A DNA stretch of 32,000 nt, taken from Bacillota bacterium. GTDB lineage: Bacteria; Bacillota; Bacilli; Bacillales; Cytobacillaceae. Below the pieces are notes generated by a model. That model was not told where the DNA came from and ran no database searches. It worked only from the letters and a program-made list of their open reading frames with translations. A program made the position numbers and the translations under genes. This document shows positions 2,042-21,224 of this stretch, piece by piece. The stretch spans positions 12,510 to 44,509 of the forward strand of contig JAEWIG010000054.1 in NCBI GenBank assembly GCA_023387295.1, given 5' to 3'. The stretch's first letter is position 1. Every line of letters begins with the position of its first letter.

Positions 2042-2599
2042 CTAAATCACATTAAAAGCTCTATAATAATCATTTGGCTTCAATTTATCAAATAATTTTG
2101 TATGATGTCCATCAAATACCCCTGGATAGAAAACTAATACTGGAATATCTGAAAAATGTGGTTGTAATGCTTCTAGTAAAGAGTGCACTCTCATAAAAGG
2201 ATATACTTCCCCTACGCCTGTAAGTACTAATACATCACCCATTTCGTGTGGATCATACTGCATCTTATCTATAAAAGCTTGTTCTGTTGCAATGGAATGC
2301 ATTTGATTCAATAAATACTCTTTACCCTTTTTCTCTTCCATCTTTGGAATACTTTTTGTAATACGTTTATCATCACATATGGTAATAAAGGTTTCATATA
2401 AGTTAACAATTCTTAAGTGGCATGTTAAAGAATGATCTGTTTTTATCTGTTCTATGAAATGCCTAATGATCATTTCTTCATTTGGTTCGTAACAAAAGAA
2501 TTGTATATTAACTTCATTACTTAAGCCCTTACCTTCTAAGAAATCTTTACTTTGTATTAATTCTCTTACTTTATCTAAACGAGATTTTATATTCTCCAT
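2042..2599 (-). CDS. brxB: BREX protein BrxB (DUF1788-like)
   Basis: 185 aa. ATG with a GGAGG SD 6 nt upstream. It sits 12 nt after the brxA stop and 13 nt before the brxC start. Size and synteny (brxA-brxB-brxC) fit BrxB. The assignment rests on gene order plus recollection of the family. Confidence 0.75.
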   Translation of the reverse strand: MENIKSRLDKVRELIQSKDFLEGKGLSNEVNIQFFCYEPNEEMIIRHFIEQIKTDHSLTCHLRIVNLYETFITICDDKRITKSIPKMEEKKGKEYLLNQMHSIATEQAFIDKMQYDPHEMGDVLVLTGVGEVYPFMRVHSLLEALQPHFSDIPVLVFYPGVFDGHHTKLFDKLKPNDYYRAFNVI

Positions 2600-2611
2600 C
2601 TCTTACCTCCA

Positions 2612-3217
2612 TCATAGAAAACAATTAAATGCCGGCAATGTTATTTCATCATTATTGCATCTAATTGCATTCTCCAGTGCATTATTGATCAGTACCGGAT
2701 TTAATTGTTGTGCCTTCCCAGAGTCAAGATAATCATTTTCTATCAATATTCTTTTAATCACTGATTTCATTTTTTTGATCGTAGACTCTTTCCACTCTGC
2801 AACAAGATCATCCTGTTCTTGTAAACGCATGAAAAATACATTAATATCCCTATCACTGAAAGCGAAATCCATTTGTCTAAACTTTTCTCCTATCACTGTA
2901 ATCATGAATTCCCACATGATACGATTTTGCTTCATTATTGCATACAAGCATACTTGCTTAGAAACCTCAACGGGTGAATCAGCAACAACCTTTATTAAGT
3001 CCCTATCATCCATTGCATGTAAGCGTTTCAAACATACACTAGCTATATTTTTAAGCATTCTTTCTGTGGGATATTGAAACAAATTTTCACTAAAAACTTT
3101 TAAGATGATTTCTTCATCTGTAAGTCCTTCTGCAATTAATTTTGCAACCGTCCTTGTTTCATAAAACAGAAACTGCTCTCTTGTTAAAGATCCATTATAA
3201 GGTACTGAACTATCCAT
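2612..3217 (-). CDS. brxA: BREX protein BrxA (DUF1819-like)
   Basis: 201 aa, all-helical-looking. It is the first structural gene of the brxA-brxB-brxC series, and its start overlaps the stop of the upstream HTH gene by 8 nt. Size and position fit BrxA. Confidence 0.7.
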   Translation of the reverse strand: MDSSVPYNGSLTREQFLFYETRTVAKLIAEGLTDEEIILKVFSENLFQYPTERMLKNIASVCLKRLHAMDDRDLIKVVADSPVEVSKQVCLYAIMKQNRIMWEFMITVIGEKFRQMDFAFSDRDINVFFMRLQEQDDLVAEWKESTIKKMKSVIKRILIENDYLDSGKAQQLNPVLINNALENAIRCNNDEITLPAFNCFL

Positions 3218-3467
3218 TTTTACGCTTCCCTTCGATGCTTAATTTCATTTGCACTACCTCTTTAGTTTCAGGTAAGATTTCAACTATCTCATCTAAGGTA
3301 CAGTCCATCTTCCTGCATATCCTCACTAGTATTTCCATTGAAACAAATTCGTTATGTGAAAGTTTAGCAAGTGTGTTTTGGCTAATTCCTACAAACGTAG
3401 CAAACTCTGTTTTCTTTAGGTTTTTATCTATTAATAACTTAAATAGTTTGTTGTAGCATACATCCAT
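3210..3467 (-). CDS. Small XRE/Cro-CI-type HTH transcriptional regulator, translationally coupled to brxA
   Basis: 85 aa. LFKLLIDKNLKKTEFATFVGISQNTLAKLSHNEFVSMEILVRICRKMDCTLDEIVE is a classic XRE helix-turn-helix layout. AAGGAGG SD upstream. 8-nt overlap with brxA. Confidence 0.8.
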   Translation of the reverse strand: MDVCYNKLFKLLIDKNLKKTEFATFVGISQNTLAKLSHNEFVSMEILVRICRKMDCTLDEIVEILPETKEVVQMKLSIEGKRKNG

Positions 3468-3521: not shown

Positions 3522-3799
3522 TCATAGTTAGATGTGAGAATAAAATTATTTTCTTTGTATTTGCAAAGTTTTTTAATATGTATGCGGTGATTTTGTGTTA
3601 ATCTGTTCTGTCATGTTAAGCTATATCTTATCTCATTCTTATTAATTCAACTTTATAAAAAATATGATAATCATCCATTTCAGCAATAAAAAAGAACCAA
3701 AATAGAGAATTACTCCCCCATCTTGATTCATATTGTATTCATCTAATAACACGACGTTTATCATTCTTCTCCCAATCCAAATAAAGGATCCTCAATAAA

Positions 3800-5083
3800 T
3801 TAGTAGAAATCATCCATATTTGCCCGATATTCTGCATCCATCTCTGCCTTAAATTCATGCATTTGATTTAAGCAAGCATCTATATCATCCAGAGCATTAT
3901 TAATAGACTCAAAAAAATTTCCAACATGAATAAAATCAAATCGTTTATTGCTTTTAAAGTAATGTTCCATATTTTTAGAAACTGGATAACGAAACTTACT
4001 AGCATCTGAATCGATATTATGAACTTGCCTACAGTAATCTTCTATAATTCCAAGATATTCTTTATCATCTTCAGATTGAGCATATTCTAATAGAAAAGGC
4101 TCTATCTCATTCCACATACCAGAAATACTATGTTTCCTGTCTAGTAATACTTTACATCTATTTTGAAAATTCTCACCTGTCTCTTCGAACCAAATTGTCT
4201 TCAAACTTAACTCTACACAATTCCGATATAAATAACACATGGGCATAAACAGAAGATTCTTTATTTCATTATTCCCAGCTTCCGTCTTTTTTTTCATATA
4301 CCATTTTAGATAATTTGCTGTCTCATGATAAGCTTTGGTATATGGGTAAAAATCTTCCCTCAGATAGCCATATCCAACTACAGATTGGCTATAATAATAC
4401 CCACCTTCCTCTATAAACATTGGATGTAATTTCTTCCATTCTTCTGCTTCATTTTCGTCTTGTACATACCACTTATCAATAATTTCAAACGCAGCTTCAA
4501 ATTTATTTGCAAACTTCACCAAATCAATATGGGTCTGTTTTTCAAACACTCTTTTTATGTTAAATTGTCCACCTAACCCCCACTCATCCTCTTCCCAATA
4601 GATATGAAATGGATATCGGAAAGAATCCGATTCCTTATCCATAACAGATATATCAGTAAAATATTGTTGTAACCATTCTAACTCTTCCATTGGTCTCAAA
4701 TAGGATGCAACTTGTTCAACTGCTGATAGAATTTTTGATAAATCATGGAAAGTTTCCTTGAGAAATTCCTTACGTTCTTCCCTATCTAGTATATATTTAA
4801 ATCCTAGTGCTTTTAATCCCAACTCAATACTGTGCCTATATAAAAAGGCTAATGAAAAGAAATATGTATCTAGCTGAGCAATGTTTGAATTATCCGTTTC
4901 AAGAAGATAGGATGTAACTAAATGTGCCGCATATTTAAAGTTTCTAGCATATGAATAACATTCTGAGGAAATCTCAGTTGACGCTATAATTCGAACCAAA
5001 TACTCTGAGTGTCTATCAAACTTATCTAATATAGTATCCTTTTCTGGATACATATTAGATAATAATCTTTCTGGTGTGTTCAT
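3800..5083 (-). CDS. Hypothetical 427-aa helical protein made of two tandem homologous domains (unknown family)
   Basis: The track ORF is 464 aa, but ATG 5081-5083 (MNTPERLL...) has a good SD (AGGAGAG) and the upstream extension has none. The two halves align: aa ~40-205 versus ~245-405. Shared motifs are LYRHSIELGLK/LYRNCVELSLK, FHDLSKIL/KHSISGMW and DSFRYP/SKFRYP. Confidence 0.7.
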   Translation of the reverse strand: MNTPERLLSNMYPEKDTILDKFDRHSEYLVRIIASTEISSECYSYARNFKYAAHLVTSYLLETDNSNIAQLDTYFFSLAFLYRHSIELGLKALGFKYILDREERKEFLKETFHDLSKILSAVEQVASYLRPMEELEWLQQYFTDISVMDKESDSFRYPFHIYWEEDEWGLGGQFNIKRVFEKQTHIDLVKFANKFEAAFEIIDKWYVQDENEAEEWKKLHPMFIEEGGYYYSQSVVGYGYLREDFYPYTKAYHETANYLKWYMKKKTEAGNNEIKNLLFMPMCYLYRNCVELSLKTIWFEETGENFQNRCKVLLDRKHSISGMWNEIEPFLLEYAQSEDDKEYLGIIEDYCRQVHNIDSDASKFRYPVSKNMEHYFKSNKRFDFIHVGNFFESINNALDDIDACLNQMHEFKAEMDAEYRANMDDFY

Positions 5084-5240: not shown

Positions 5241-8180
5241 TTACAATCTTCTATTTTTTCGAGCACACTCCGTACATACACCAGTATTAACTTTATTAAT
5301 CCCGCCATAACTATTAAAATAATCTACCAATTTTATACCATCACACTCTTTACATTTAACCCAACGTTGTCCACTAGAATCAATGATACATTGTTGTTGC
5401 TGAGTGAACTGGTCTTTCACTTCATTATAACACCTTCTCAGATGTTCTTCTTTGGCCAATTGTCGCTCTCGTTTCTTTTGTTCTTGTGCATCTTGCTCTT
5501 CTCGAATTTTTTCTTCTATCTCTTTCTTAATATCCATTTGTCTATTAATTTCTATTCCAAAGCGTTCACGGTATTCTATTTCCTGCTCATTCAAAATCAC
5601 TGGTGCACTACTAATTATGTAGTTACCAGCTTTATCACTTGATAATACTTGTCTTTCAATAGGTACTATCTCATCGACAAAAGTTGTTTGCTTTTTATCA
5701 TTTGTAAGAACATATAATTTATTTTTAGCTCTTGTCATTGCTACATAAAACAGTCTACGTTCCTCCCGATACTTATCCATAGCACCAGCCGAATCATGAA
5801 TAGTGTTTATATTAACAGATGGGAATACACCATCATATACATCCATTATATAAACTGTATCATATTCTAATCCCTTACTTGAATGAACTGTGGATAAAAT
5901 AATAGTAGCATTTTTTGACGTAGCATTTTTTTCTATCATTTTAGGTAGTTGTTCCAACCGTTTTAAAAATGCAAGTTGTTTTGGCTCTTGTTCTGCTAAT
6001 ATACGTAATAATTCAATTTTACTTTCATCCATAGAATTCTTTTGTAGGTACTGTCCATAACCTTCAGAACAAATATAATTAATTGCAGAAATAGAATTCT
6101 TTCCTTTTAACCTATTTAAAAAAATTTCAAAATCTTCAGCCTTATCTAATAAACTCGGCCAACGTTCTAGTTGCTTTTTCAAAGCATCTGTTACAGAAAT
6201 CCGATTCCAACGGCTATTTTTACATGTCCACTCTGCTGTTTTTTTATTAAAACCATATCCACATTTATAATATATCTTCATAAAAGACTCTGTATCAAAA
6301 GGATCTATAGCAAGCTTCATAAAAGCTTTGATATCATCAACTATTTTATAAGTAAAAAAATTTGTTTTTATTTGTAATACTTTAAATTGAATTTGATTGC
6401 GAATTAATAAATCCATTAAAGGAATCGCAAGATCATTATCACGATATAAAATTGCTGTTTTCTCCTTGTTGTTATAAGCGACATCTAACAAATACTTATA
6501 CTGTTCATAACGATTGGAGAAAGAAACTCTTTCCACTGACTCTCCATGACCTCGATTTGCAACCATCGTCTTCTTATTACGCTTTAAATCATTTTCAATA
6601 AATTTCTGTGCTGTATTAACTATTTCTTCCGTAGAACGATAGTTACACTCCATCATTAGTACAAATGGATTCCTATATTTGTTTTTGAAATTGAGCAATG
6701 CCTTTGGATAAGCACCACGAAATCCATAAATACTTTGATCCTCATCTCCAACCATAAAGATATTGTTATTTCCAGTAAGCATATGGATTATCTTATGTTG
6801 AATTTTAGACGTATCCTGTGCTTCATCAACACAGATATACTTATACTGATTTTGAAATTCGTGAAGTATATCAGGATGTTTCAACAGTATTTGATGGGCA
6901 TATACCATTTGATCATCAAAATCCATAACTTTCTTCTGTCTCAAAGTTTCTTTATATATCTGAAATATTCTCGCAACATTTGGAACAGATGTATCTAACA
7001 TAGTAATTTCATCGTTATTCAACATCATATTTTTTATGTAACCAATTGCAACCTCTGTTTCAATCACATCGCTTTCTGTTGGATATTCATCATTCACTTG
7101 TTTATAAATATTTTTGATAATTTTTGTTCTTTCCTTATTATCAAGCTGATTAAATGGATTACGTGAATACCGGTAGATAATACTGTTACTGATACTATTG
7201 ATAGTCCTAAACTGAACTCTATTTGCAAGTTCTGGACCAAATAGGCTTGAGAAGCGTTTTTTCATATCTTCCGCTGCTGCTGTTGTATAGGTCATTGCCA
7301 AGATGTTATCTGGTGAAATCCCTTTACAAATAATCATGTATCCAAGTCTTACTACAAGCACTGTAGTTTTCCCACTCCCCGGAACTGCAAGCAACAGATT
7401 TGCTCCCTCTACTGCTTGTACCGCTCGTTCCTGTTGCTTATTTAGTGTAATCCAAAATTTCTCAGCAAACATTTTATACATTTGATTTTCGTAGATATCT
7501 TCACGATCCGGGCCTTCACAAATTCCATTTACCAGTCCTAGATACTGCATAAATTCTTCTTTACTAAATCTTTTCGATGTTTTAAATCTTTCAAATCCTT
7601 CGGGTGAAACGTCAACTATCTTCGCAAGACAATCTTCCTCATTATCACGTATCTGAAAAAATAATTCAACCTGCCCACCCAGAAAATCAAAGTTATTAAA
7701 TGTTTTTCGTGGATGTGTCCACTGATAAGATCTACCCTCTTCTCCATCTGTACGTATTAGTTGCCCATTCATATATGCATCAATCTGATCAAATACCCAG
7801 ATTACTTTGTAACCCAGTGATTGATAAAAATTATTTCGATTATTAAACTGTGTAATAGATAAGGAACTATGTTGAAACTCAACGACTGTCCGACCAATCA
7901 ATATATCTGCACGATGTCTTGTTTCCCCCCAATTAAGAATTACTTCCTGATTATTTTTAGGAAATCTACTTTGCCATTCGAAATGCCATGCTGACATATC
8001 ATATTCTCGTTCCCAACTATCAGTACATAAATAGGATGGTTGATGTGAAAAATGATGTTGACGTACCTCACCTTTTCTTTGTATTAAGGGTGCTCCACAA
8101 GATGGGCAGTAATAGTCACGCTTGGTGATTGTATCATCAATAAATATTCTATTGTGATTTTCATCTAATGCTATTAACAT
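5241..8180 (-). CDS. Fusion protein: N-terminal CoiA-like (PD-(D/E)xK-type) nuclease with CxxC finger, UvrD/Rep/PcrA-type SF1 helicase, K/E-rich coiled coil, C-terminal CxxC...CxxC zinc ribbon
   Basis: 979 aa, GGAGG SD. N-terminus: YYCPSCGAPL...HHFSH...HRADILIGRTVVEFQHSSLS...GYKVIWVFD (CoiA-like pattern). Helicase motifs: AVPGSGKTT (I), ICVDEAQD (II), MVGDEDQSIYGFRGA (III), NYRS (IV), TVHSSKGLEYDTVYI (V), LFYVAMTRAKNKLYV (VI). C-terminus: CKECDG...(21 aa)...CTECARK. Confidence 0.85.
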   Translation of the reverse strand: MLIALDENHNRIFIDDTITKRDYYCPSCGAPLIQRKGEVRQHHFSHQPSYLCTDSWEREYDMSAWHFEWQSRFPKNNQEVILNWGETRHRADILIGRTVVEFQHSSLSITQFNNRNNFYQSLGYKVIWVFDQIDAYMNGQLIRTDGEEGRSYQWTHPRKTFNNFDFLGGQVELFFQIRDNEEDCLAKIVDVSPEGFERFKTSKRFSKEEFMQYLGLVNGICEGPDREDIYENQMYKMFAEKFWITLNKQQERAVQAVEGANLLLAVPGSGKTTVLVVRLGYMIICKGISPDNILAMTYTTAAAEDMKKRFSSLFGPELANRVQFRTINSISNSIIYRYSRNPFNQLDNKERTKIIKNIYKQVNDEYPTESDVIETEVAIGYIKNMMLNNDEITMLDTSVPNVARIFQIYKETLRQKKVMDFDDQMVYAHQILLKHPDILHEFQNQYKYICVDEAQDTSKIQHKIIHMLTGNNNIFMVGDEDQSIYGFRGAYPKALLNFKNKYRNPFVLMMECNYRSTEEIVNTAQKFIENDLKRNKKTMVANRGHGESVERVSFSNRYEQYKYLLDVAYNNKEKTAILYRDNDLAIPLMDLLIRNQIQFKVLQIKTNFFTYKIVDDIKAFMKLAIDPFDTESFMKIYYKCGYGFNKKTAEWTCKNSRWNRISVTDALKKQLERWPSLLDKAEDFEIFLNRLKGKNSISAINYICSEGYGQYLQKNSMDESKIELLRILAEQEPKQLAFLKRLEQLPKMIEKNATSKNATIILSTVHSSKGLEYDTVYIMDVYDGVFPSVNINTIHDSAGAMDKYREERRLFYVAMTRAKNKLYVLTNDKKQTTFVDEIVPIERQVLSSDKAGNYIISSAPVILNEQEIEYRERFGIEINRQMDIKKEIEEKIREEQDAQEQKKRERQLAKEEHLRRCYNEVKDQFTQQQQCIIDSSGQRWVKCKECDGIKLVDYFNSYGGINKVNTGVCTECARKNRRL

Positions 8181-8256
8181 TTAGTACCTCCATAAAAAGC
8201 AAAATCTAATCGTCGTAAAATATAATTCTCATATTTATTTGTATGATTTTCATCAA

Positions 8257-8862
8257 TTATCGTTCAATATCTATATTAAATAAGGGTAGGAGTTCCCCTA
8301 TCGCTCTATCTTCTAAATAAAATCGATTTGCCGATTCTAAATCACTATCCAACATTACATAGGACAACCCAACATTATGTAAAATTAAGTTTCTACTATC
8401 AGCTTCTTCTAAAAACATTCTTTCAATACGGTCTCTCATCTGATTACTACTGGTTTTTCTATTATCAGAAAGCGCATTTTTACCCATACTTAATCCTCGT
8501 TTTGTTTTCAATTGAAGATGTAGACCTAATCTATTCTTTAGGCTATCTGCTGTCTTTCCAACATACAGAGGTATATTCCCATTTACTTGAATTTGTTGAA
8601 TCCATTCATCGGTAAACTCAATTTCAACAATTCTTCCATTTGGCCCTTTAAAACTAATAACTCGATTCACCTTATTATTCATAAAATCACTTAATGTTCC
8701 CGTCCACCAAAAAATATAAACACCCCCTGAATTAGGTATTATATTTGGTTTCAATCTGTAATCACCATTAGATAGATGATCGACAATATCTAAAAGATTC
8801 TTATGTTTAAGTTCCGTAAGGCATCTCATTCCATCATTAATAGTAGCTATATCTAGTTTCAA
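8257..8862 (-). CDS. GIY-YIG superfamily nuclease-like protein with a ~40-aa insertion between the GIY and YIG strands
   Basis: Motifs: GGVYIFWW ... PLYVGKTADSLKNRLGLHL ... RFYLEDRAIGELLPLFN (UvrC-type GIY / YVGK..L..R / E....P.FN pattern). The likely start is TTG 8860-8862, preceded by GGGAGG at 8-nt spacing. The track's ATG 8886 lies upstream of that SD. A TATAAT -10 lies at 8904-8909 (minus). Confidence 0.7.
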   Translation of the reverse strand: MKLDIATINDGMRCLTELKHKNLLDIVDHLSNGDYRLKPNIIPNSGGVYIFWWTGTLSDFMNNKVNRVISFKGPNGRIVEIEFTDEWIQQIQVNGNIPLYVGKTADSLKNRLGLHLQLKTKRGLSMGKNALSDNRKTSSNQMRDRIERMFLEEADSRNLILHNVGLSYVMLDSDLESANRFYLEDRAIGELLPLFNIDIER

Positions 8863-9043
8863 CTTGATTACCTCCCTTGTGTACAATTGTATTTCTAATC
8901 AATATTATACTAATAAACGCTTGTTAATACCATATTTTTCATGTAACATCATGTTATTTCTACATAAAAATATGTTTAGTGCTATTCAATTTTGCGTTCT
9001 ATTCCATTCCATAAGCTTCACTGTACTCGTATCCATAGAGGAG

Positions 9044-10432
9044 TTATCTATTAATTTTTTCAGTTATATACTTTTTATCTGTCACTATTAAGGTCTTAAC
9101 ATTTGCCTTAATAACTCCGATTTCTTTACTTTCTTGCTTCAAACTTTTATGTTTATTATAAACGTTACTCTTTTCTTCTCCTAGCTTTGTATACTCCTCC
9201 CTTAATTCCTTCACCTTCGGTATATTCTTTCCTACCTCCACAATTTTCTCTTTAGCCGCCTTATGCAATAACAGTTCCTCCACATGTTCCTCATAAAACT
9301 CCTTATTAAACCCAGACTCCCGATACTCCAGATAAACCTCCCTAGTCTTTGCATAATTTACAATATGCTTCTGCAACTCCCTATTCTCCTTCATCTCTTT
9401 CTCAATCTCCTTAAGCCTACCAGACACCTCATGAAACTCTCGATTCACTTCCTGTACCTTCTCCTCCAACTCTTCCAAACTAGTAATATGATTCTCCTCC
9501 AGATAATTTAATGTCTTAGCCATCTGCTTTAGATTAAACACCTTCGCCCATCTCTCATATCCAGGTCCCTTACCCGCCTGTAATTTTGCCTGAATATCTA
9601 CGATCAGATTAACCTTCTTCTCAACCCTAACACATTTCTTACCAGTCCTTTTAATGCTCTTTTCTCCACAAATTATGGCCCTAATATCTTCTTCACTAAA
9701 CCCATCCCGTAATGATCGTAACCGAATGAATTTCTTCTGCTCTGCATCCTTAAACGAAACATACTTTCCTCGTTTCACTTCATACCCATTCAGCTCCATC
9801 CGATATAAAAACTCGTCAAAATCTTTTAGTCTACTTTTTAATACCTCTTCTATCACATACCGCAACTTCTCCGAATAACTAACTGTCTTCTTATCTCCCA
9901 ACCACTTCCCATAATGCTTACTACTCTGCTTTGGATTCTCAATTATCGATAACCCATTTTCCAAACAAATAATATCCGATACTCTCCTTACTGCCTTCCC
10001 AGAACCTAAAAAATCTCTGAACTTTTTAGTACAGTTCAGAGATGTAGAATTAAATATAATATGATTATGTATGTGTGCCTTATCCACATGTGTTGCTACA
10101 ATAAATGCATGATTTCCTTTTGTAAATCGCATGGCAAGTTCATATCCCACCTTATTCGCTAGCTCAGGGGTAACTTCCCCTGGCTTAAAGGATTGTCGTA
10201 TTTGATAAGCAATCACGTTATTTTCCTGTTCACGGCCAGTAATATGGGTGTATTGTCGTTTGGATAGGAGGAATTCTGACTGCACTGTCTTTGGATCACA
10301 CGCATAGGAACTAATGTATTTTCCCTCCGATGTCTTATCTGGATTTTTTGCATACTCCGTCCGATCCTCAATACAAGAAGCAATGGATTTCCCTTTGTTT
10401 TGATGCATTGCAATAAAACGTGTGGTTGCCAC
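9044..10432 (-). CDS. MobA/VirD2-family conjugative relaxase with C-terminal coiled-coil region
   Basis: 462 aa. GTG start with AGGAGGG SD 6 nt upstream. The N-terminal relaxase fold motifs include the histidine triad THVDKAHIHNHIIFN. Confidence 0.9.
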   Translation of the reverse strand: MATTRFIAMHQNKGKSIASCIEDRTEYAKNPDKTSEGKYISSYACDPKTVQSEFLLSKRQYTHITGREQENNVIAYQIRQSFKPGEVTPELANKVGYELAMRFTKGNHAFIVATHVDKAHIHNHIIFNSTSLNCTKKFRDFLGSGKAVRRVSDIICLENGLSIIENPKQSSKHYGKWLGDKKTVSYSEKLRYVIEEVLKSRLKDFDEFLYRMELNGYEVKRGKYVSFKDAEQKKFIRLRSLRDGFSEEDIRAIICGEKSIKRTGKKCVRVEKKVNLIVDIQAKLQAGKGPGYERWAKVFNLKQMAKTLNYLEENHITSLEELEEKVQEVNREFHEVSGRLKEIEKEMKENRELQKHIVNYAKTREVYLEYRESGFNKEFYEEHVEELLLHKAAKEKIVEVGKNIPKVKELREEYTKLGEEKSNVYNKHKSLKQESKEIGVIKANVKTLIVTDKKYITEKINR

Positions 10433-10461
10433 ACAAATCCCTCCTATCCTATTATAATTTC

Positions 10462-10746
10462 TTAGATTAACCGTATCCGTTCCCTTATTCCATCAACCAC
10501 TCCAATCAACCAACTTGCTACCATTGGGATACCATATGGGCTGATCAGAAAAGCTAGAAACATCATTTTAAAACCTTCGCCCGTTTCTCCAAAGAATAGC
10601 ATTGTTAACAATGCGACTGTAAAGATTACAAACGATATTATCGACAACAACATCGTCCAAAAAAGACACACAAACTTACATGGTAGTAGCAATAAAGTCA
10701 ATGCAAGTGACACTGGAAATAAGATGATTTTTAATATGATTCGCAT
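10462..10746 (-). CDS. Small multi-pass membrane protein (CD1845-like mobile-element protein)
   Basis: Hydrophobic 94-aa product starting MRIILKIILFPVSLALTLLLL. ATG 10744-10746 sits 6 nt after GGAGGA. The longer TTG-initiated 114-aa version in the track lacks an SD. Confidence 0.6.
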   Translation of the reverse strand: MRIILKIILFPVSLALTLLLLPCKFVCLFWTMLLSIISFVIFTVALLTMLFFGETGEGFKMMFLAFLISPYGIPMVASWLIGVVDGIRERIRLI

Positions 10747-10815
10747 AGACATCCTCCACGTTAAACTTCTTTTCTTCAACCTATCAGATCTAAATTTCGT
10801 TGTCAATGATATGAA

Positions 10816-11151
10816 TTATATGGCTGCTAATCGTTTTATAATCTCATTGGCTGCATCCCATAGTTTATCAAAGTGCTGTTGTAAATACACTAAATCCCCT
10901 TTATATATGTTTCCTGTCTCATGTGCTTTTTTTGTTATCTGATTTAAATTGTTGCTCGTATACCGAAGTAGAGAAGTTAATTCTCGAAGATCCATTAGGT
11001 CTAATTGTATGACATACCCATCAATAGCCATCTTCCGAAGATATGCTCCCATATTCTTCGTTCCTGCTTGTTGCATACGTTCTAAAATCAGTTTTTGTTC
11101 TTTCTCTGATACCATAAAATGTAGCTGAATATCACGTTTTCGATGTACCAT
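10816..11151 (-). CDS. mobC: MobC-type relaxosome accessory protein
   Basis: HRKRDIQLHFMVSEKEQKLILERMQQAG...YLRKMAIDG...LRYTSNNLNQITKKAHETG matches the MobC ribbon-helix-helix pattern. Start ATG 11149-11151 follows AAGGAGAGG; the track start at 11184 has no SD. Confidence 0.85.
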   Translation of the reverse strand: MVHRKRDIQLHFMVSEKEQKLILERMQQAGTKNMGAYLRKMAIDGYVIQLDLMDLRELTSLLRYTSNNLNQITKKAHETGNIYKGDLVYLQQHFDKLWDAANEIIKRLAAI

Positions 11152-11188: not shown

Positions 11189-11398
11189 TTAAAAGTCTGG
11201 ATAAAGATCTAGTGATAAAAACTCCTCCTCTGTCATAGCCTTTAATTTTACAATGGTTGTATTCGTTAACTTTCTTAATTCCACTTCATCCTCTTTTAGA
11301 TACTCTTTCATTTCATTAAGGTTCTGAATTGCTTCCTTCTTTGTGTATGCTGCATAGATGCATATCAAATTTCCTTCTTCAAAGGTGAATTGGCTCAT
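11189..11398 (-). CDS. Transposon-transfer assisting (TTRAP) family small protein
   Basis: 69 aa: MSQFTFEEGNLICIYAAYTKKEAIQNLNEMKEYL...LKAMTEEEFLSLDLYPDF. ATG 11396-11398 is preceded by GGGAGGAAAG. It overlaps the end of the ArdC-like gene by 20 nt. Confidence 0.7.
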   Translation of the reverse strand: MSQFTFEEGNLICIYAAYTKKEAIQNLNEMKEYLKEDEVELRKLTNTTIVKLKAMTEEEFLSLDLYPDF

Positions 11399-13187
11399 TT
11401 TCTTTCCTCCCAGCGATGAGTTCGATCGACTTCTTGGGTGTTTGCACATTAACAGAGGGTTGTAGTTTTTCACGAATTGATTTCTTCTTTTCCTTTTGTT
11501 CTATGTCATCCTTTTTCATTTGCTCCTGCATCAGAAGAGTTTGACTTTGCTCTATACTAACTTCCATTACCGTCATTGTTGGTAAGTTATTAATGATTCC
11601 ATTCAGATTGTTATCGTTTTGCTCTACACTATCTTCCAAATTAAAAAGCGGATTAATCTTTGCATGGAATCCTAAAAGTTTCTGAAAACCAATGCTATCT
11701 ACGTAATAATACGATACAACTTTATGCTCTTGTAAAGCAATGATATCACTTACTGATAAACAATGTCCTGTAAACTCTTTTGGGGGATTGAAATTAAATT
11801 GTTGGTAAATGGCATGTAGTCGCTCATTCGTTGTTGCCTCATCATGAAAGATTCCTTCATATACTTCATGATAATTCATCTCATCTACTTGCAGCCCCAT
11901 CTCTTCTAATCGTTCCAAAGACTCAAATCGATAGTTTCGTAAATTCTCTTCTCGATTTAACTGTAAGATCCGATAAGAATCTGCCCTACTAATTATCTCA
12001 TTCGCTGTTTCCATATCTTCTAATAGTTTATAATTCACTTCTTCCATTCGTTCTGGAGACAGTTCATGGAATGCTAGTATTTCCTCTCTAGCTTCAAGAA
12101 TCGTAAGAGATGGATCATCTAATTGGCCACCATCTAGTTCATGTTTGCTTTCCTTTTCAAAAAATGTATAATCATATCCATCATCTGATTGTTGAATTTG
12201 CAAATAGATAATGTCATCTAGAACATATAATGCCTCCCTTTGATCCATCATTTCCTTTTGCATTTCAACTAAATAGGTATCCACCTCGGTAATAAGCTGA
12301 TTCGCTGTTTGATTAATTAGTTCTAACGATGCTTTCAATTCTAGCAGTTCCTTATCCTTACTCCATGAAGCAATATAACCAAAACTATTTTCATTAGTTT
12401 CAATGCCATAGTAGGCACATACGGTATAAGAAACACTTTCCGCTTCTACTTCCTTGGTTCGTTGATTCTTTATTAACACTTTTATTTGCTCATGGTCCAA
12501 CGTCTGAGCTGGTTCCAAATTTTTATTATGCAATAGGGAGTGTGCAATCTCATGAATCGTAGCAGAGATTGTTTGAACCTCACTCATCCCACTTCGAATT
12601 GCAATTCTTTGTTCAAGCGGACTAAAGTAACCATCCGTACTAGCTTTCATTTCTTCAAATGCAATGGGAACTGGAGATGTTCTCCTTAATGCCTCTATTA
12701 ATTTGGGATAATTATAGACATTCCCCTCTAAGCTAGACACTAACTCAGGCAGAGGTTTTCCTTCTGTTTGACTAACATCAAAAACGGTCACTGGTTTAAA
12801 CATCGGGATTTTTAATTCTACTTCTTCGGTCAAAACTTTTCCTGTGATATCTTTTATTGGCATTCTTGTTACTGGATCTAGTTTTTCTATATCCTTCTTC
12901 GTCTTGTAAGGCGTAGGTGCGATAATCTTGATTCCTTTCTCTCCTTTTCTAACATGCCGTTCAAACTCTTCTTGCCATCTCTGAAATCCAGCAACAAGCG
13001 TTGCATTGGGATTTTGTAAGAAAATCAGGATAGTATTATTCAGCGAATACCTTGGAAACCTTGACATGGTTCTTAGATACTGTTTGTATTTTTCACTTTC
13101 AAATAACTCCTGGATTCCTTTTTCTATTCCATCGGTGATTGCTTTTAAATGTTCCTTTTGTGACTGTCTCCTCTCTTCCAACTTCAT
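11379..13187 (-). CDS. ArdC-like anti-restriction protein: N-terminal ssDNA-binding domain, HExxH metallopeptidase, YodL-like and C-terminal K/E-rich regions
   Basis: 602 aa, AAGAGGTGA SD. RFPRYSLNNTILIFLQNPNATLVAGFQRWQ is the ArdC N-domain signature. HEIAHSLLH is a zincin motif. SYRILQLNREENLRNYRFESLERLEE resembles the YodL-like domain. Confidence 0.8.
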   Translation of the reverse strand: MKLEERRQSQKEHLKAITDGIEKGIQELFESEKYKQYLRTMSRFPRYSLNNTILIFLQNPNATLVAGFQRWQEEFERHVRKGEKGIKIIAPTPYKTKKDIEKLDPVTRMPIKDITGKVLTEEVELKIPMFKPVTVFDVSQTEGKPLPELVSSLEGNVYNYPKLIEALRRTSPVPIAFEEMKASTDGYFSPLEQRIAIRSGMSEVQTISATIHEIAHSLLHNKNLEPAQTLDHEQIKVLIKNQRTKEVEAESVSYTVCAYYGIETNENSFGYIASWSKDKELLELKASLELINQTANQLITEVDTYLVEMQKEMMDQREALYVLDDIIYLQIQQSDDGYDYTFFEKESKHELDGGQLDDPSLTILEAREEILAFHELSPERMEEVNYKLLEDMETANEIISRADSYRILQLNREENLRNYRFESLERLEEMGLQVDEMNYHEVYEGIFHDEATTNERLHAIYQQFNFNPPKEFTGHCLSVSDIIALQEHKVVSYYYVDSIGFQKLLGFHAKINPLFNLEDSVEQNDNNLNGIINNLPTMTVMEVSIEQSQTLLMQEQMKKDDIEQKEKKKSIREKLQPSVNVQTPKKSIELIAGRKENEPIHL

Positions 13188-20492: not shown

Positions 20493-21083
20493 TTATCGTT
20501 CCATTGTATCCCTATTCCTTCTGCTATCTTTATTTTCATATCTTCCAATCTTTTCATCCTTTTCCGCAACTACAGAATGTTCAAACTCAATCGCATGATA
20601 ATCCACCTTATACGAAGCCATCGGATTTGTCATAATCCCTTTTTCCTTAAAGCTAAAATACTTCCCATTATCTCCACTCACAATGATATGATCCAATAAT
20701 GGTATTCCAATCAAATTACAAACCTGAATCATCCGATCTGTCAACATAGTATCTTCTCTCGAAGGTTCCAAGGTTCCAGAGGGATGATTATGCATTAAAA
20801 TTATATTAGCGGCATTGGATAATATACTAGTCTTCAACATTTCCCTAGGATGTGCGATTGTCTGATTAATGGCACCAATACTAACAATGCTGCAATTGAT
20901 TGGTGTACTATCTGATTTTAAATTAATCACACACACAACTTCTCGATCCATTTCACAAAGCAAATCCCCCATTACATCAACAGCAGCCTCGGGACTTACA
21001 ATACGATGATCCGAATACACCGGAGCATCCTTTACTAGCCGTACCGAAACCATATTAAGCTTGAATTCATTCTTTTTGGGCAT
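20493..21083 (-). CDS. radC: RadC-like JAB/MPN domain protein
   Basis: JAMM motif HNHPSGTLEPSREDTMLTDR. Start ATG 21081-21083 (MPKKNEFKLNMVS...) follows GGAGAGGGGGAAA; the longer track ORF has no SD. Confidence 0.85.
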   Translation of the reverse strand: MPKKNEFKLNMVSVRLVKDAPVYSDHRIVSPEAAVDVMGDLLCEMDREVVCVINLKSDSTPINCSIVSIGAINQTIAHPREMLKTSILSNAANIILMHNHPSGTLEPSREDTMLTDRMIQVCNLIGIPLLDHIIVSGDNGKYFSFKEKGIMTNPMASYKVDYHAIEFEHSVVAEKDEKIGRYENKDSRRNRDTMER

Positions 21084-21224
21084 CTTCAATTTCCCCCTCT
21101 CCAAACTCAACACAAATAATAAAATCATTTTCACTTTCATTCACTAATCGAACCAATTCTTCTTTACTTAACTGTATCTCCATGGTACTTGGTCCTTTCT
21201 TCAATACGTTAACCTCCTCTTTTC

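Follow-up and report, generated by a model that had tools for sequence, protein, structure and literature searches.

Pneumococcal CoiA carries an N-terminal C2H2 finger and the catalytic residues D95 and E105 (the D95A and E105A proteins are inactive); it is a structure-specific endonuclease for single-stranded DNA (ssDNA) and a D-loop resolvase, which cuts D-loops and 5′-tailed junctions of single- and double-stranded DNA in synergy with the RadA helicase (bioRxiv 10.1101/2024.02.06.579203). Nhi (Staphylococcus) and Hna are single-protein nuclease-helicases that have been reported to respond to phage single-stranded-DNA-binding protein (SSB) and replication complexes (PMC10732053), and R.Eco29kI is a GIY-YIG type II restriction enzyme with the active site Y49, Y76, R104, H108, E142, and N154 (PMC1952068). 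In a functional selection in Escherichia coli, a CoiA domain was found once, and a GIY-YIG nuclease likewise once, among the antiphage systems recovered (Vassallo et al. 2022; PMC9519451). Here we describe two adjacent genes, gene 1 for a GIY-YIG nuclease and gene 2 for a fusion of a CoiA-type nuclease to a UvrD-type helicase, in a 32,000-nucleotide stretch of Bacillota DNA (GCA_023387295.1, contig JAEWIG010000054.1, positions 12,510 to 44,509; referred to here as the window, from the first letter of which all coordinates are counted). The window belongs to an ICE (integrative and conjugative element), and the original prediction, made from the sequence alone, was that the two genes form a nuclease-helicase immunity module. 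We found that genes 1 and 2 are not a conserved two-gene system and that they lie side by side only in this one ICE lineage. They are probably separate single-gene cassettes, each acting alone, that were stacked in the cargo slot between the relaxase gene and a type 1 BREX operon.

The two genes and the spacer between them are as follows.

8257..8862, minus strand: gene 1, a stand-alone Eco29kI-like GIY-YIG endonuclease of 201 aa (family alignments, AlphaFold2 [AF2] model, Foldseek, and profile)
8181..8256, minus strand: the 76-nt spacer between genes 1 and 2, with the gene 2 Shine-Dalgarno (SD) sequence GGAGG inside it and no terminator-like hairpin
5241..8180, minus strand: gene 2, a CoiA-nuclease/UvrD-helicase/zinc-ribbon fusion of 979 aa (Pfam, NCBIfam, and an alignment of 25 homologues)

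Both open reading frames (ORFs) were found where they had been predicted, co-directional, 76 nt apart, and each with its own SD sequence.

Genes 1 and 2 beyond the element

The surroundings of the two genes were surveyed separately. The gene 1 scan took one genome per species and returned 36 loci with flanks of up to 10 kb on either side; the gene 2 screen for gene 1 covered 80 metagenome loci and 15 looked-up loci. The loci examined are a subset of the matches, and the sample of contexts is small. There was no CoiA or UvrD-like gene near gene 1 at any of the 35 loci other than the window's own, 27 of which had at least 3 kb of downstream sequence, and all-against-all clustering of ORFs across 32 gene 1 loci returned no shared neighbor family except antisense artifacts. 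From the other side, neither gene 1 nor gene 3 (the 427-aa gene that follows gene 2 in the window) was present near CoiA-UvrD fusions at 22 non-self loci, and the window's own element was the only place among the 80 and 15 screened loci where gene 1 lay next to gene 2. That element was recovered, with identical gene order, from four independent metagenome assemblies (L042 to L045), and L042 and L043 are full-length copies of it.

We regard two intermediate cases as decisive against pairing. At the first (L140), an intact gene 1 (91% identical) lies on a 1086-nt segment with 84% nucleotide identity to window positions 9147..8069 (L140:306-1372). On either side of gene 1, this segment retains only the final 100 nt of the relaxase gene and the initial 36 codons of gene 2, and past the latter a breakpoint leads into an unrelated helicase fragment; the gene 2 remnant is 48 codons long, 36 of them homologous. 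At the second (L037), another ICE has gene 2 (74% identical) upstream of its BREX genes, and both gene 1 and gene 3 are missing there. With no co-occurrence outside the element from either side and with these two loci, the proposed two-gene module had to be abandoned. The 427-aa gene, the co-occurrence of which with the fusion had also been raised, does not extend the pair into a larger system either, as it is likewise found alone elsewhere. The earlier remark that the two nuclease folds are components of no named defense system found support: among the PADLOC v2 models, none extends over gene 1 or over the CoiA portion of gene 2, which has only a weak match to DruB. For annotation, the lesson is one of caution: tight, cotranscribed pairs in ICE cargo slots can be accreted independent cassettes, and a check of co-occurrence ought to precede the naming of any system.

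The CoiA-UvrD fusion and its surroundings

Gene 2 begins with an ATG codon that has GGAGG ahead of it. Its product contains four Pfam domains, all above the gathering score: CoiA_N (residues 18 to 53; 41.8 bits, cutoff 26.3), CoiA_nuc (residues 86 to 132; 40.2 bits, cutoff 20.3), UvrD-helicase (residues 246 to 502), and UvrD_C (residues 509 to 827). The parts of the gene are listed below.

7461..8180, minus strand: CoiA-like module, residues 1 to 240 (zinc finger, PD-(D/E)xK core, and C-terminal extension)
8022-8129, minus strand: zinc finger C25, C28, H43, H46, and C52 (conserved residues)
7785-7925, minus strand: PD-(D/E)xK core D92, E101-F-Q103, and K125 (conserved residues)
5673..7448, minus strand: UvrD/PcrA/Rep-type superfamily 1 (SF1) core, residues 245 to 836 (UvrD-helicase E 2.8e-61; UvrD_C E 2.5e-44)
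5265..5603, minus strand: K/E/R-rich stretch followed by a CxxC-x22-CxxC zinc ribbon, residues ~860 to 972 (alignment of 25 homologues)
5265-5354, minus strand: zinc ribbon C943, C946, C969, and C972 (nearly invariant)

The SF1 motifs are all intact: GSGKT (Walker A), DEAQD, VGDEDQSIYGFRGA, NYRST, HSSKGLE, and EERRLFYVAMTRAK. In 25 homologues of 45 to 74% identity, these motifs, the zinc-finger ligands, D92, E101-F-Q103, K125, and the C-terminal ribbon are invariant or nearly so, and the K/E-rich stretch is poorly conserved; the SF1 motifs, C25, C28, H43, H46, D92, and E101 show no variation at all. Pfam and the alignment thus confirmed the predicted CoiA nuclease, the UvrD motor with its intact motifs, and the terminal ribbon. 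The degeneration of catalytic residues that would have told against nuclease and helicase activity was seen in neither protein, the gene 2 motifs and the catalytic hexad of gene 1 (see below) being conserved in the alignments.

Against the NCBIfam equivalog models, the helicase part scored best with PcrA (311 bits, cutoff 911) and also fell far below the cutoffs for UvrD, Rep, HelD, and AddA; by these scores, it is not orthologous to any of the five. For the N-terminal 245 residues, AF2 gave a poor model from an alignment of 15 sequences (predicted local distance difference test [pLDDT] score of 62), and Foldseek returned no meaningful match for it (best E 0.16), so that the CoiA assignment rests on Pfam and the conserved residues. 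Residues 3 to 51, in the zinc-finger region, gave a weak PADLOC match to the N terminus of DruB from Druantia (E 3.3e-4, 17.5 bits). The family also includes variants of 861 to 862 aa without the C-terminal ribbon (e.g., L048 and L049) and one of 1054 aa with a different, longer tail (among L048 to L050). Since CoiA acts in synergy with a separate RadA helicase, gene 2 joins in one chain two activities that are kept separate in transformation. Our literature search found no account of a CoiA-UvrD fusion or of a CoiA-helicase defense gene.

The gene 2 family is large, with at least 120 matches of 44 to 97% identity, and all of those listed have the CoiA-UvrD architecture. About 14 distinct contexts were examined, and in 8 of them the fusion adjoins known defense genes. 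BREX is the neighbor in three: the window, L037, and L049, where the order is PglZ-BrxL-AraC-fusion. Elsewhere, the fusion adjoins McrBC (L052), a type I restriction-modification (R-M) system (L053), LlaJI R-M with two C5 methylases (L038), or genes for Dam, DndB, an SLFN helicase, and RNase T (L130). At L129, its neighbors are AAA_21, HNH, and radical-SAM genes, and L126 is a region resembling a mobile genetic element (MGE). Three loci have an AraC-type helix-turn-helix (HTH) gene of 252 to 287 aa directly upstream of the fusion (L049:7122-7982, L052:7117-7980, and L130:6224-6982), which may encode a dedicated regulator of it; the window does not.

Comparisons between loci show that gene 2 is a mobile cassette. 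The fusions of L038 and L039 are 89% identical, and the similarity between these loci is limited to a block of ~3.3 kb, from ~20 nt upstream through ~330 nt downstream. When the window was compared with L037 (fusion at 8001-10940), gene 2 was 74% identical, whereas the identity was 26 to 34% for BrxA, BrxB, and BrxC and 25 to 42% for the type IV secretion system (T4SS) proteins. Because the identity of gene 2 far exceeds that of the flanking BREX proteins, gene 2 was placed beside two divergent BREX systems independently. A 45-aa ORF is conserved ~115 to 130 nt 3′ of the fusion at two loci (L038:11085-11222 and L039:11058-11195) and is not present in the window.

Helicase-only relatives of 690 to 830 aa (L056 to L125), which are 41 to 46% identical to the gene 2 core and abundant in gut metagenomes, keep different company. 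A scan of 64 of their neighbors found housekeeping genes (asparaginase, MatE, antiporters, topoisomerase, and permeases), and no restriction, BREX, McrBC, or nuclease family was among the 25 commonest families of these neighbors. The same 25 families speak against a separate nuclease gene beside these relatives, which would have revived a two-gene architecture.

For gene 2 itself, a role directed at foreign DNA is more likely than housekeeping, because 89%-identical homologues occur in unrelated flanks and 8 of the ~14 contexts adjoin defense genes. The earlier suggestion of foreign-DNA processing rather than housekeeping repair therefore stands for this gene.

The GIY-YIG nuclease, gene 3, and the rest of the element

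Gene 1 starts at a TTG codon (8862-8860) rather than at an ATG, with AAGGGAGG 7 nt upstream. The mechanical ORF reaches 8886, and every homologue begins at the 201-aa start. By itself, the protein is below the threshold for the Pfam GIY-YIG model PF01541 (E 0.017, 15.8 bits), and single-sequence searches of NCBIfam, PADLOC, PHROGs, and the PDB (phmmer) returned no match; its identity was resolved only by family profiles and structure prediction. A 55-member profile matched the GIY-YIG domain of Thermotoga maritima UvrC (E 6.2e-5) and T4 EndoII (E 0.088); in the UvrC match, Y100, R111, H115, E184, and N196 line up with its catalytic positions, and distant relatives pass the PF01541 cutoff on their own (P0486 with 23.4 bits and P0500 with 22.6 bits). 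The AF2 model was of high confidence (pLDDT 94.7; predicted template-modeling [TM] score 0.91). In a Foldseek search of the PDB, its top 10 matches were all R.Eco29kI chains (probability 0.96 to 1.0, best E 7e-4, TM score 0.40 to 0.44), and the next match had a probability of 0.04. Gene 1 therefore encodes a GIY-YIG nuclease superfamily member, of the Eco29kI structural type, in agreement with the original call, which the profile, the model, and the conserved catalytic residues bear out.

The catalytic hexad is Y49, Y100, R111, H115, E184, and N196. Nine residues are invariant in 55 relatives down to 26% identity (Y49, Y100, G102, R111, R180, F181, E184, N196, and R201), and H115 is at least 90% conserved among the 55 sequences. 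The analysis confirmed the insertion noticed earlier between the GIY and YIG strands: the distance from Y49 to Y100 is 51 residues, versus 27 in Eco29kI, and the model places in between a helix (residues 57 to 61), a β-hairpin (strands 68 to 72 and 78 to 82), and a second helix (85 to 90). The family is small, with 157 proteins in a word-indexed search and 321 clusters at E≤1e-3 among 1.84 billion cluster representatives in a profile search. Its members, nearly all ~200 aa long and unannotated, are spread over Bacillota, Desulfobacterota, Planctomycetota, Bacteroidota, Ignavibacteriota, Proteobacteria, NC10, and others. Rare fusions join this type of GIY-YIG domain to the Holliday-junction resolvase RusA or to DUF7380 plus DUF4209 (P0482 and P0394).

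In defense islands of Clostridial genomes, gene 1 homologues (70 to 74% identical) are found in a cassette, between a gene for an ADP-ribosylglycohydrolase (ARH) with DUF6508 (~450 aa) and one for an HD-domain protein (191 to 198 aa). This order recurs at L001, L002, and L141 to L145 (e.g., L001:8624-12612, L002:8625-11318, and L141:6623-9316), with 73 to 92% identity among the ARH proteins and 75 to 85% among the HD proteins; at L002, the stop codon of the ARH gene overlaps the start codon of gene 1. The flanks of the cassette vary and include a WYL-WCX regulator, McrBC, a CBASS-like cyclase with ThiF genes, and a LEM-3-type GIY-YIG gene. It is possible that the cassette is an unrecognized system. 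From the RusA and DUF7380-DUF4209 fusions and from the partnership with ARH and HD genes, one might speculate that gene 1 targets DNA that is modified or branched.

A restriction enzyme with a nearby methylase was considered for gene 1 and ruled out, there being no adjacent methyltransferase at the 35 other loci or in the window; a DNA methylase (N6_N4_Mtase) was 1 of the 103 neighbor ORFs of gene 1 loci, which were mostly housekeeping genes. Carriage of gene 1 or gene 2 by phages or plasmids was likewise found to be essentially absent: the phage and plasmid collections held no full-length match to either, and IMG/VR yielded one locus for gene 1 and none for gene 2.

The remainder of the element bears on how the genes are expressed and on what surrounds them. 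All genes of the window are on the minus strand.

9044..10432, minus strand: MobA/VirD2-type relaxase of the ICE (Pfam Relaxase E 1.3e-33; same order in L042 to L045)
8863..9043, minus strand: 181-nt intergenic region before gene 1, with a TATAAT-like box and the SD sequence AAGGGAGG (8870-8877), read from the sequence
3800..5083, minus strand: gene 3, 427 aa from the ATG at 5083 (mechanical ORF to 5194; the length matches that of homologues, ~430 aa)
3694..3729, minus strand: terminator-like hairpin plus T-run after gene 3 (consensus scan)
2042..3467, minus strand: start of the type 1 BREX operon, with an HTH gene (3210..3467), BrxA (2612..3217), and BrxB (2042..2599) (Pfam and PADLOC)

The window encodes a relaxase, a coupling protein, VirB4-like and VirB6-like proteins, an NlpC/P60 hydrolase, an ArdC-N protein, RadC, and ParAB, which identifies it as an ICE. 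BrxC and PglX are encoded further along the same element, downstream of BrxA and BrxB. With the relaxase, the T4SS-type genes, and BrxA/BrxB all identified, the predicted position of the pair in an ICE cargo slot adjoining BREX was confirmed. The relaxase gene is the upstream boundary of the slot, and the GC content is 30 to 35% at the cargo end (2 to 9 kb) versus 35 to 40% in the conjugation module. No methylase was found between the relaxase gene and BREX in the window, and Rfam and repeat scans of the region returned nothing relevant. Within the ICE backbone, window positions 11379..13187 and 20493..21140 (both minus strand) encode an ArdC-N/LPD16/YodL protein of the antirestriction type (602 aa) and a RadC-like JAB protein.

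A consensus scan detected no terminator-like site between genes 1, 2, and 3, and so the three genes probably share one transcript in this ICE. The 181-nt region at 8863..9043 is likely to contain their promoter, and the hairpin at 3694..3729 probably ends the transcript. The mechanical ORF of gene 3 begins 46 nt past gene 2. Its product contains two weak HEPN-like stretches (Pfam HEPN, 25 bits). On other Clostridial mobile elements (L132 to L138), gene 3 has homologues that genes 1 and 2 do not accompany; one is followed by a TIR_2 gene and another follows SNF2 and SEC-C genes, near serine recombinases and prophage lysis genes. Gene 3 is thus a third, independent cargo gene.

Proposed roles and comparison with known systems

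Several observations weigh against the view that each cassette acts alone. Separated by short gaps with no terminator among them, genes 1 to 3 seem to form a single transcription unit here, and they may be coregulated or may cooperate in this ICE. The junction of genes 1 and 2 predates the split from L140 (~84% nucleotide identity); since it was already in the ancestor shared with L140, the juxtaposition has lasted some time. The fusion has metabolic surroundings in 3 of the ~14 contexts (L039, L046, and L127), and one cluster of fusions at 90% identity has 1425 members on large chromosomal contigs, so gene 2 may be near-core in some species. Most of the distant homologues of gene 1 sit among housekeeping genes, not defense genes. 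An obligate two-gene immunity system, Gabija-like or OLD-plus-UvrD-like, in which genes 1 and 2 depend on each other, would account for the tight, co-directional spacing without a terminator, for the identical arrangement in four independent samples of the ICE, and for the match of the helicase core to the PADLOC GajB models (E 1e-76). We nevertheless consider it highly improbable and largely refuted, given the failure of the two genes to co-occur outside the ICE lineage in either direction, the retention of gene 1 at L140 after the loss of gene 2 and of gene 2 at L037 without gene 1, the recurrent partners of gene 1 elsewhere (ARH-DUF6508 and HD genes, not a helicase), the nuclease that gene 2 itself encodes, and the absence of a GajA or OLD-type ATPase-TOPRIM gene. 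It is unlikely that gene 1 is a stranded piece of the ARH-DUF6508/GIY-YIG/HD cassette or a selfish orphan endonuclease of the restriction or homing type. The recurrence of the ARH-gene 1-HD order with varying flanks fits such an origin, as do the 1.09-kb segment of L140, with gene 1 between truncated genes, the occurrence of distant homologues as lone insertions in housekeeping surroundings where no partner is conserved, and the rarity of the family. Yet gene 1 is undamaged and its catalytic residues are all conserved across phyla, which argues that it has been selected for an activity of its own, and neither intron, intein, or repeat boundaries nor phage copies were found.

Other explanations concern gene 2 alone. 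It could be a DNA maintenance enzyme rather than an immune one, either an AddA/RecB-like enzyme of recombination and repair or a helper of the ICE in rolling-circle replication or in the processing of transferred DNA. The known role of CoiA is indeed in recombination (D-loop resolution) with a helicase, the nearest helicase-only relatives look like housekeeping genes, the metabolic neighborhoods and the abundant chromosomal cluster mentioned above point the same way, and gene 2 lies two genes from the relaxase gene in the window. We think this unlikely, because no relaxase or replication gene lay close by at any fusion locus examined beyond the L042 to L045 lineage (L037, although on an ICE, has none nearby), near-identical copies of the fusion occur in unrelated flanks, in 8 of the ~14 contexts the neighbors include BREX, restriction, McrBC, or Dnd-type genes, and the scores are far under the equivalog cutoffs for PcrA, UvrD, Rep, and AddA. 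Alternatively, gene 2 could belong to the downstream operon as an accessory effector that supplies BREX with nuclease or helicase activity, as its three independent adjacencies to BREX in ~14 contexts and its recruitment, twice, beside divergent BREX systems might suggest. This is quite unlikely: most homologues have no BREX within 7 to 8 kb; the position varies, being upstream of BrxA twice and downstream of BrxL once; and an unrelated gene intervenes (gene 3 in the window and a 106-aa ORF in L037). Moreover, adjacency to McrBC or restriction genes is equally common, so that generic clustering in defense islands explains the BREX adjacency.

We therefore favor separate single-gene cassettes, with the tandem-HEPN gene 3 as the third and all three probably cotranscribed here; they would have been gathered by accretion, as in a defense island, rather than as an obligate system. 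Gene 2 most likely encodes a self-sufficient nuclease-helicase. UvrD and PcrA are 3′-to-5′ SF1A motors that load on ssDNA beside a duplex. A UvrD-type motor in gene 2 would load on DNA that is single-stranded or branched (for example, the replication, recombination, or transfer intermediates of an incoming phage or plasmid) and unwind it. Unwinding would displace a 5′-tailed strand, the geometry that CoiA cuts, and the fused CoiA-type endonuclease would cut this displaced strand at the junction of single- and double-stranded DNA, while both the zinc finger and the ribbon at the C terminus would help to hold the DNA. Because unwinding by gene 2 would yield the substrate geometry of CoiA, foreign replication forks, D-loops, rolling-circle intermediates, and conjugative ssDNA would be unwound and then nicked or cut. 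AddAB/RecBCD and the single-protein defense enzymes Nhi and Hna follow the same logic. The substrates, the strand polarity, and any defense phenotype are our inference. Gene 1, too, most likely acts on its own; as a protein of the Eco29kI structural type, it would cut DNA by the one-metal GIY-YIG mechanism. As it has no methylase partner, it must tell its targets apart in some other way, for which DNA modification, DNA structure, and regulation are candidates. Together with BREX, the three cassettes would probably form a layered cargo that guards the host of the ICE against competing phages and mobile elements.

Defense roles are plausible for both genes, and the CoiA-UvrD fusion is the more interesting of the two; the ARH/GIY-YIG/HD cassette offers a second lead. 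More tentatively, the fusion could be an undescribed single-protein immune system directed against MGEs and abundant in gut Clostridia, sometimes with an AraC-type regulator and repeatedly beside BREX or restriction genes, and gene 1 could, separately, be the effector of an unrecognized ARH-DUF6508/GIY-YIG/HD system. If immune, the fusion would add a common and so far unlisted nuclease-helicase defense to the repertoire of gut Firmicutes and would tie the biochemistry of CoiA, the cleavage of D-loops and 5′-tailed junctions with a helicase, to immunity. To our knowledge, BREX has no known nuclease, and its repeated adjacency to the fusion is a lead on the cooperation of BREX with nucleolytic effectors.

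Among described proteins, R.Eco29kI is the only significant structural match to gene 1; the two are of similar size, share six equivalent active-site residues, and have the same spacings from R to H (4) and from E to N (12). Local motifs also correspond (LPIYVGKA, NRIxxH, and PLWN in Eco29kI, as read from mutagenic primers [PMC1952068], versus IPLYVGKT, NRLxxH, and PLFN in gene 1). They differ in that the TM score is only 0.40 to 0.44, the His-to-Glu distance is 69 versus 34 residues, and the Tyr-Tyr distance is longer, as noted above; unlike in Eco29kI R-M, moreover, no methyltransferase adjoins gene 1 at any of the 35 other loci. Pfam searches at E≤10 gave only the generic GIY-YIG family, and sequence and profile searches of the PDB at E≤10 did not return Eco29kI. 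Despite its Eco29kI-like structure, gene 1 thus does not qualify as part of an R-M system, because it has neither a methylase nor a sequence match to the Eco29kI family.

The original prediction also saw an echo of Gabija and of OLD-plus-UvrD arrangements. The resemblance holds for the helicase core, which matches GajB and has a nuclease gene upstream, but not for the partner: PADLOC returned no hit for gene 1 or gene 3, no OLD ATPase-TOPRIM protein of the GajA type was found, the upstream nuclease is GIY-YIG rather than OLD/TOPRIM and does not co-occur with the helicase elsewhere, and gene 2 has a nuclease of its own. The GajB similarity is in any case generic to UvrD-family helicases, PcrA and Rep scoring as well or better. 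The top PADLOC match of gene 2, the DRT-associated helicase RTasHel, spans only residues 245 to 638 of the helicase, and none of the window ORFs scanned contained a reverse-transcriptase domain. The best 25 of 46 whole-protein matches were all to GajB or RTasHel, and neither the first 238 aa nor the last 140 aa had any in PADLOC apart from the weak one to DruB. The gene pair is therefore not a Gabija, OLD-plus-UvrD, or DRT-helicase system, because the partner genes that define these systems are missing and the match is confined to the generic helicase core. Gene 2 also matches none of the canonical BREX genes (BrxA, BrxB, BrxC, PglX, PglZ, and BrxL).

As in Nhi and Hna, helicase and nuclease are combined in gene 2 in one protein, encoded by a lone gene in defense islands or mobile elements. 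The domains are from other families and in another order, with an N-terminal CoiA PD-(D/E)xK nuclease and zinc finger, a UvrD/PcrA-type core, and a C-terminal zinc ribbon. AddA and RecB likewise have an SF1 UvrD-like motor and a PD-(D/E)xK nuclease in one chain, and their models match the core; gene 2, however, has a CoiA-family nuclease at its N terminus rather than a RecB-family one at its C terminus, and the AddB or RecC/RecD partner is absent. The N-terminal 240 residues make up a full CoiA module, with D92 and E101 equivalent to D95 and E105 of CoiA, whereas the helicase is covalently fused and UvrD-type rather than a separate RadA. Gene 2 is mobile, and it resides in ICEs and in gut Clostridial defense islands, apparently not in a competence regulon. 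By its domains, it belongs to both the CoiA and the UvrD family, but it is neither a stand-alone competence protein nor a housekeeping helicase. No sequence relationship of genes 1 and 2 to the systems of Vassallo et al. (2022) was detectable with PADLOC v2, in which gene 1 had no match and the CoiA part of gene 2 only that to DruB. Taken together, these comparisons make the CoiA-UvrD family a credible, apparently undescribed defense candidate and gene 1 a solitary nuclease of the restriction type.

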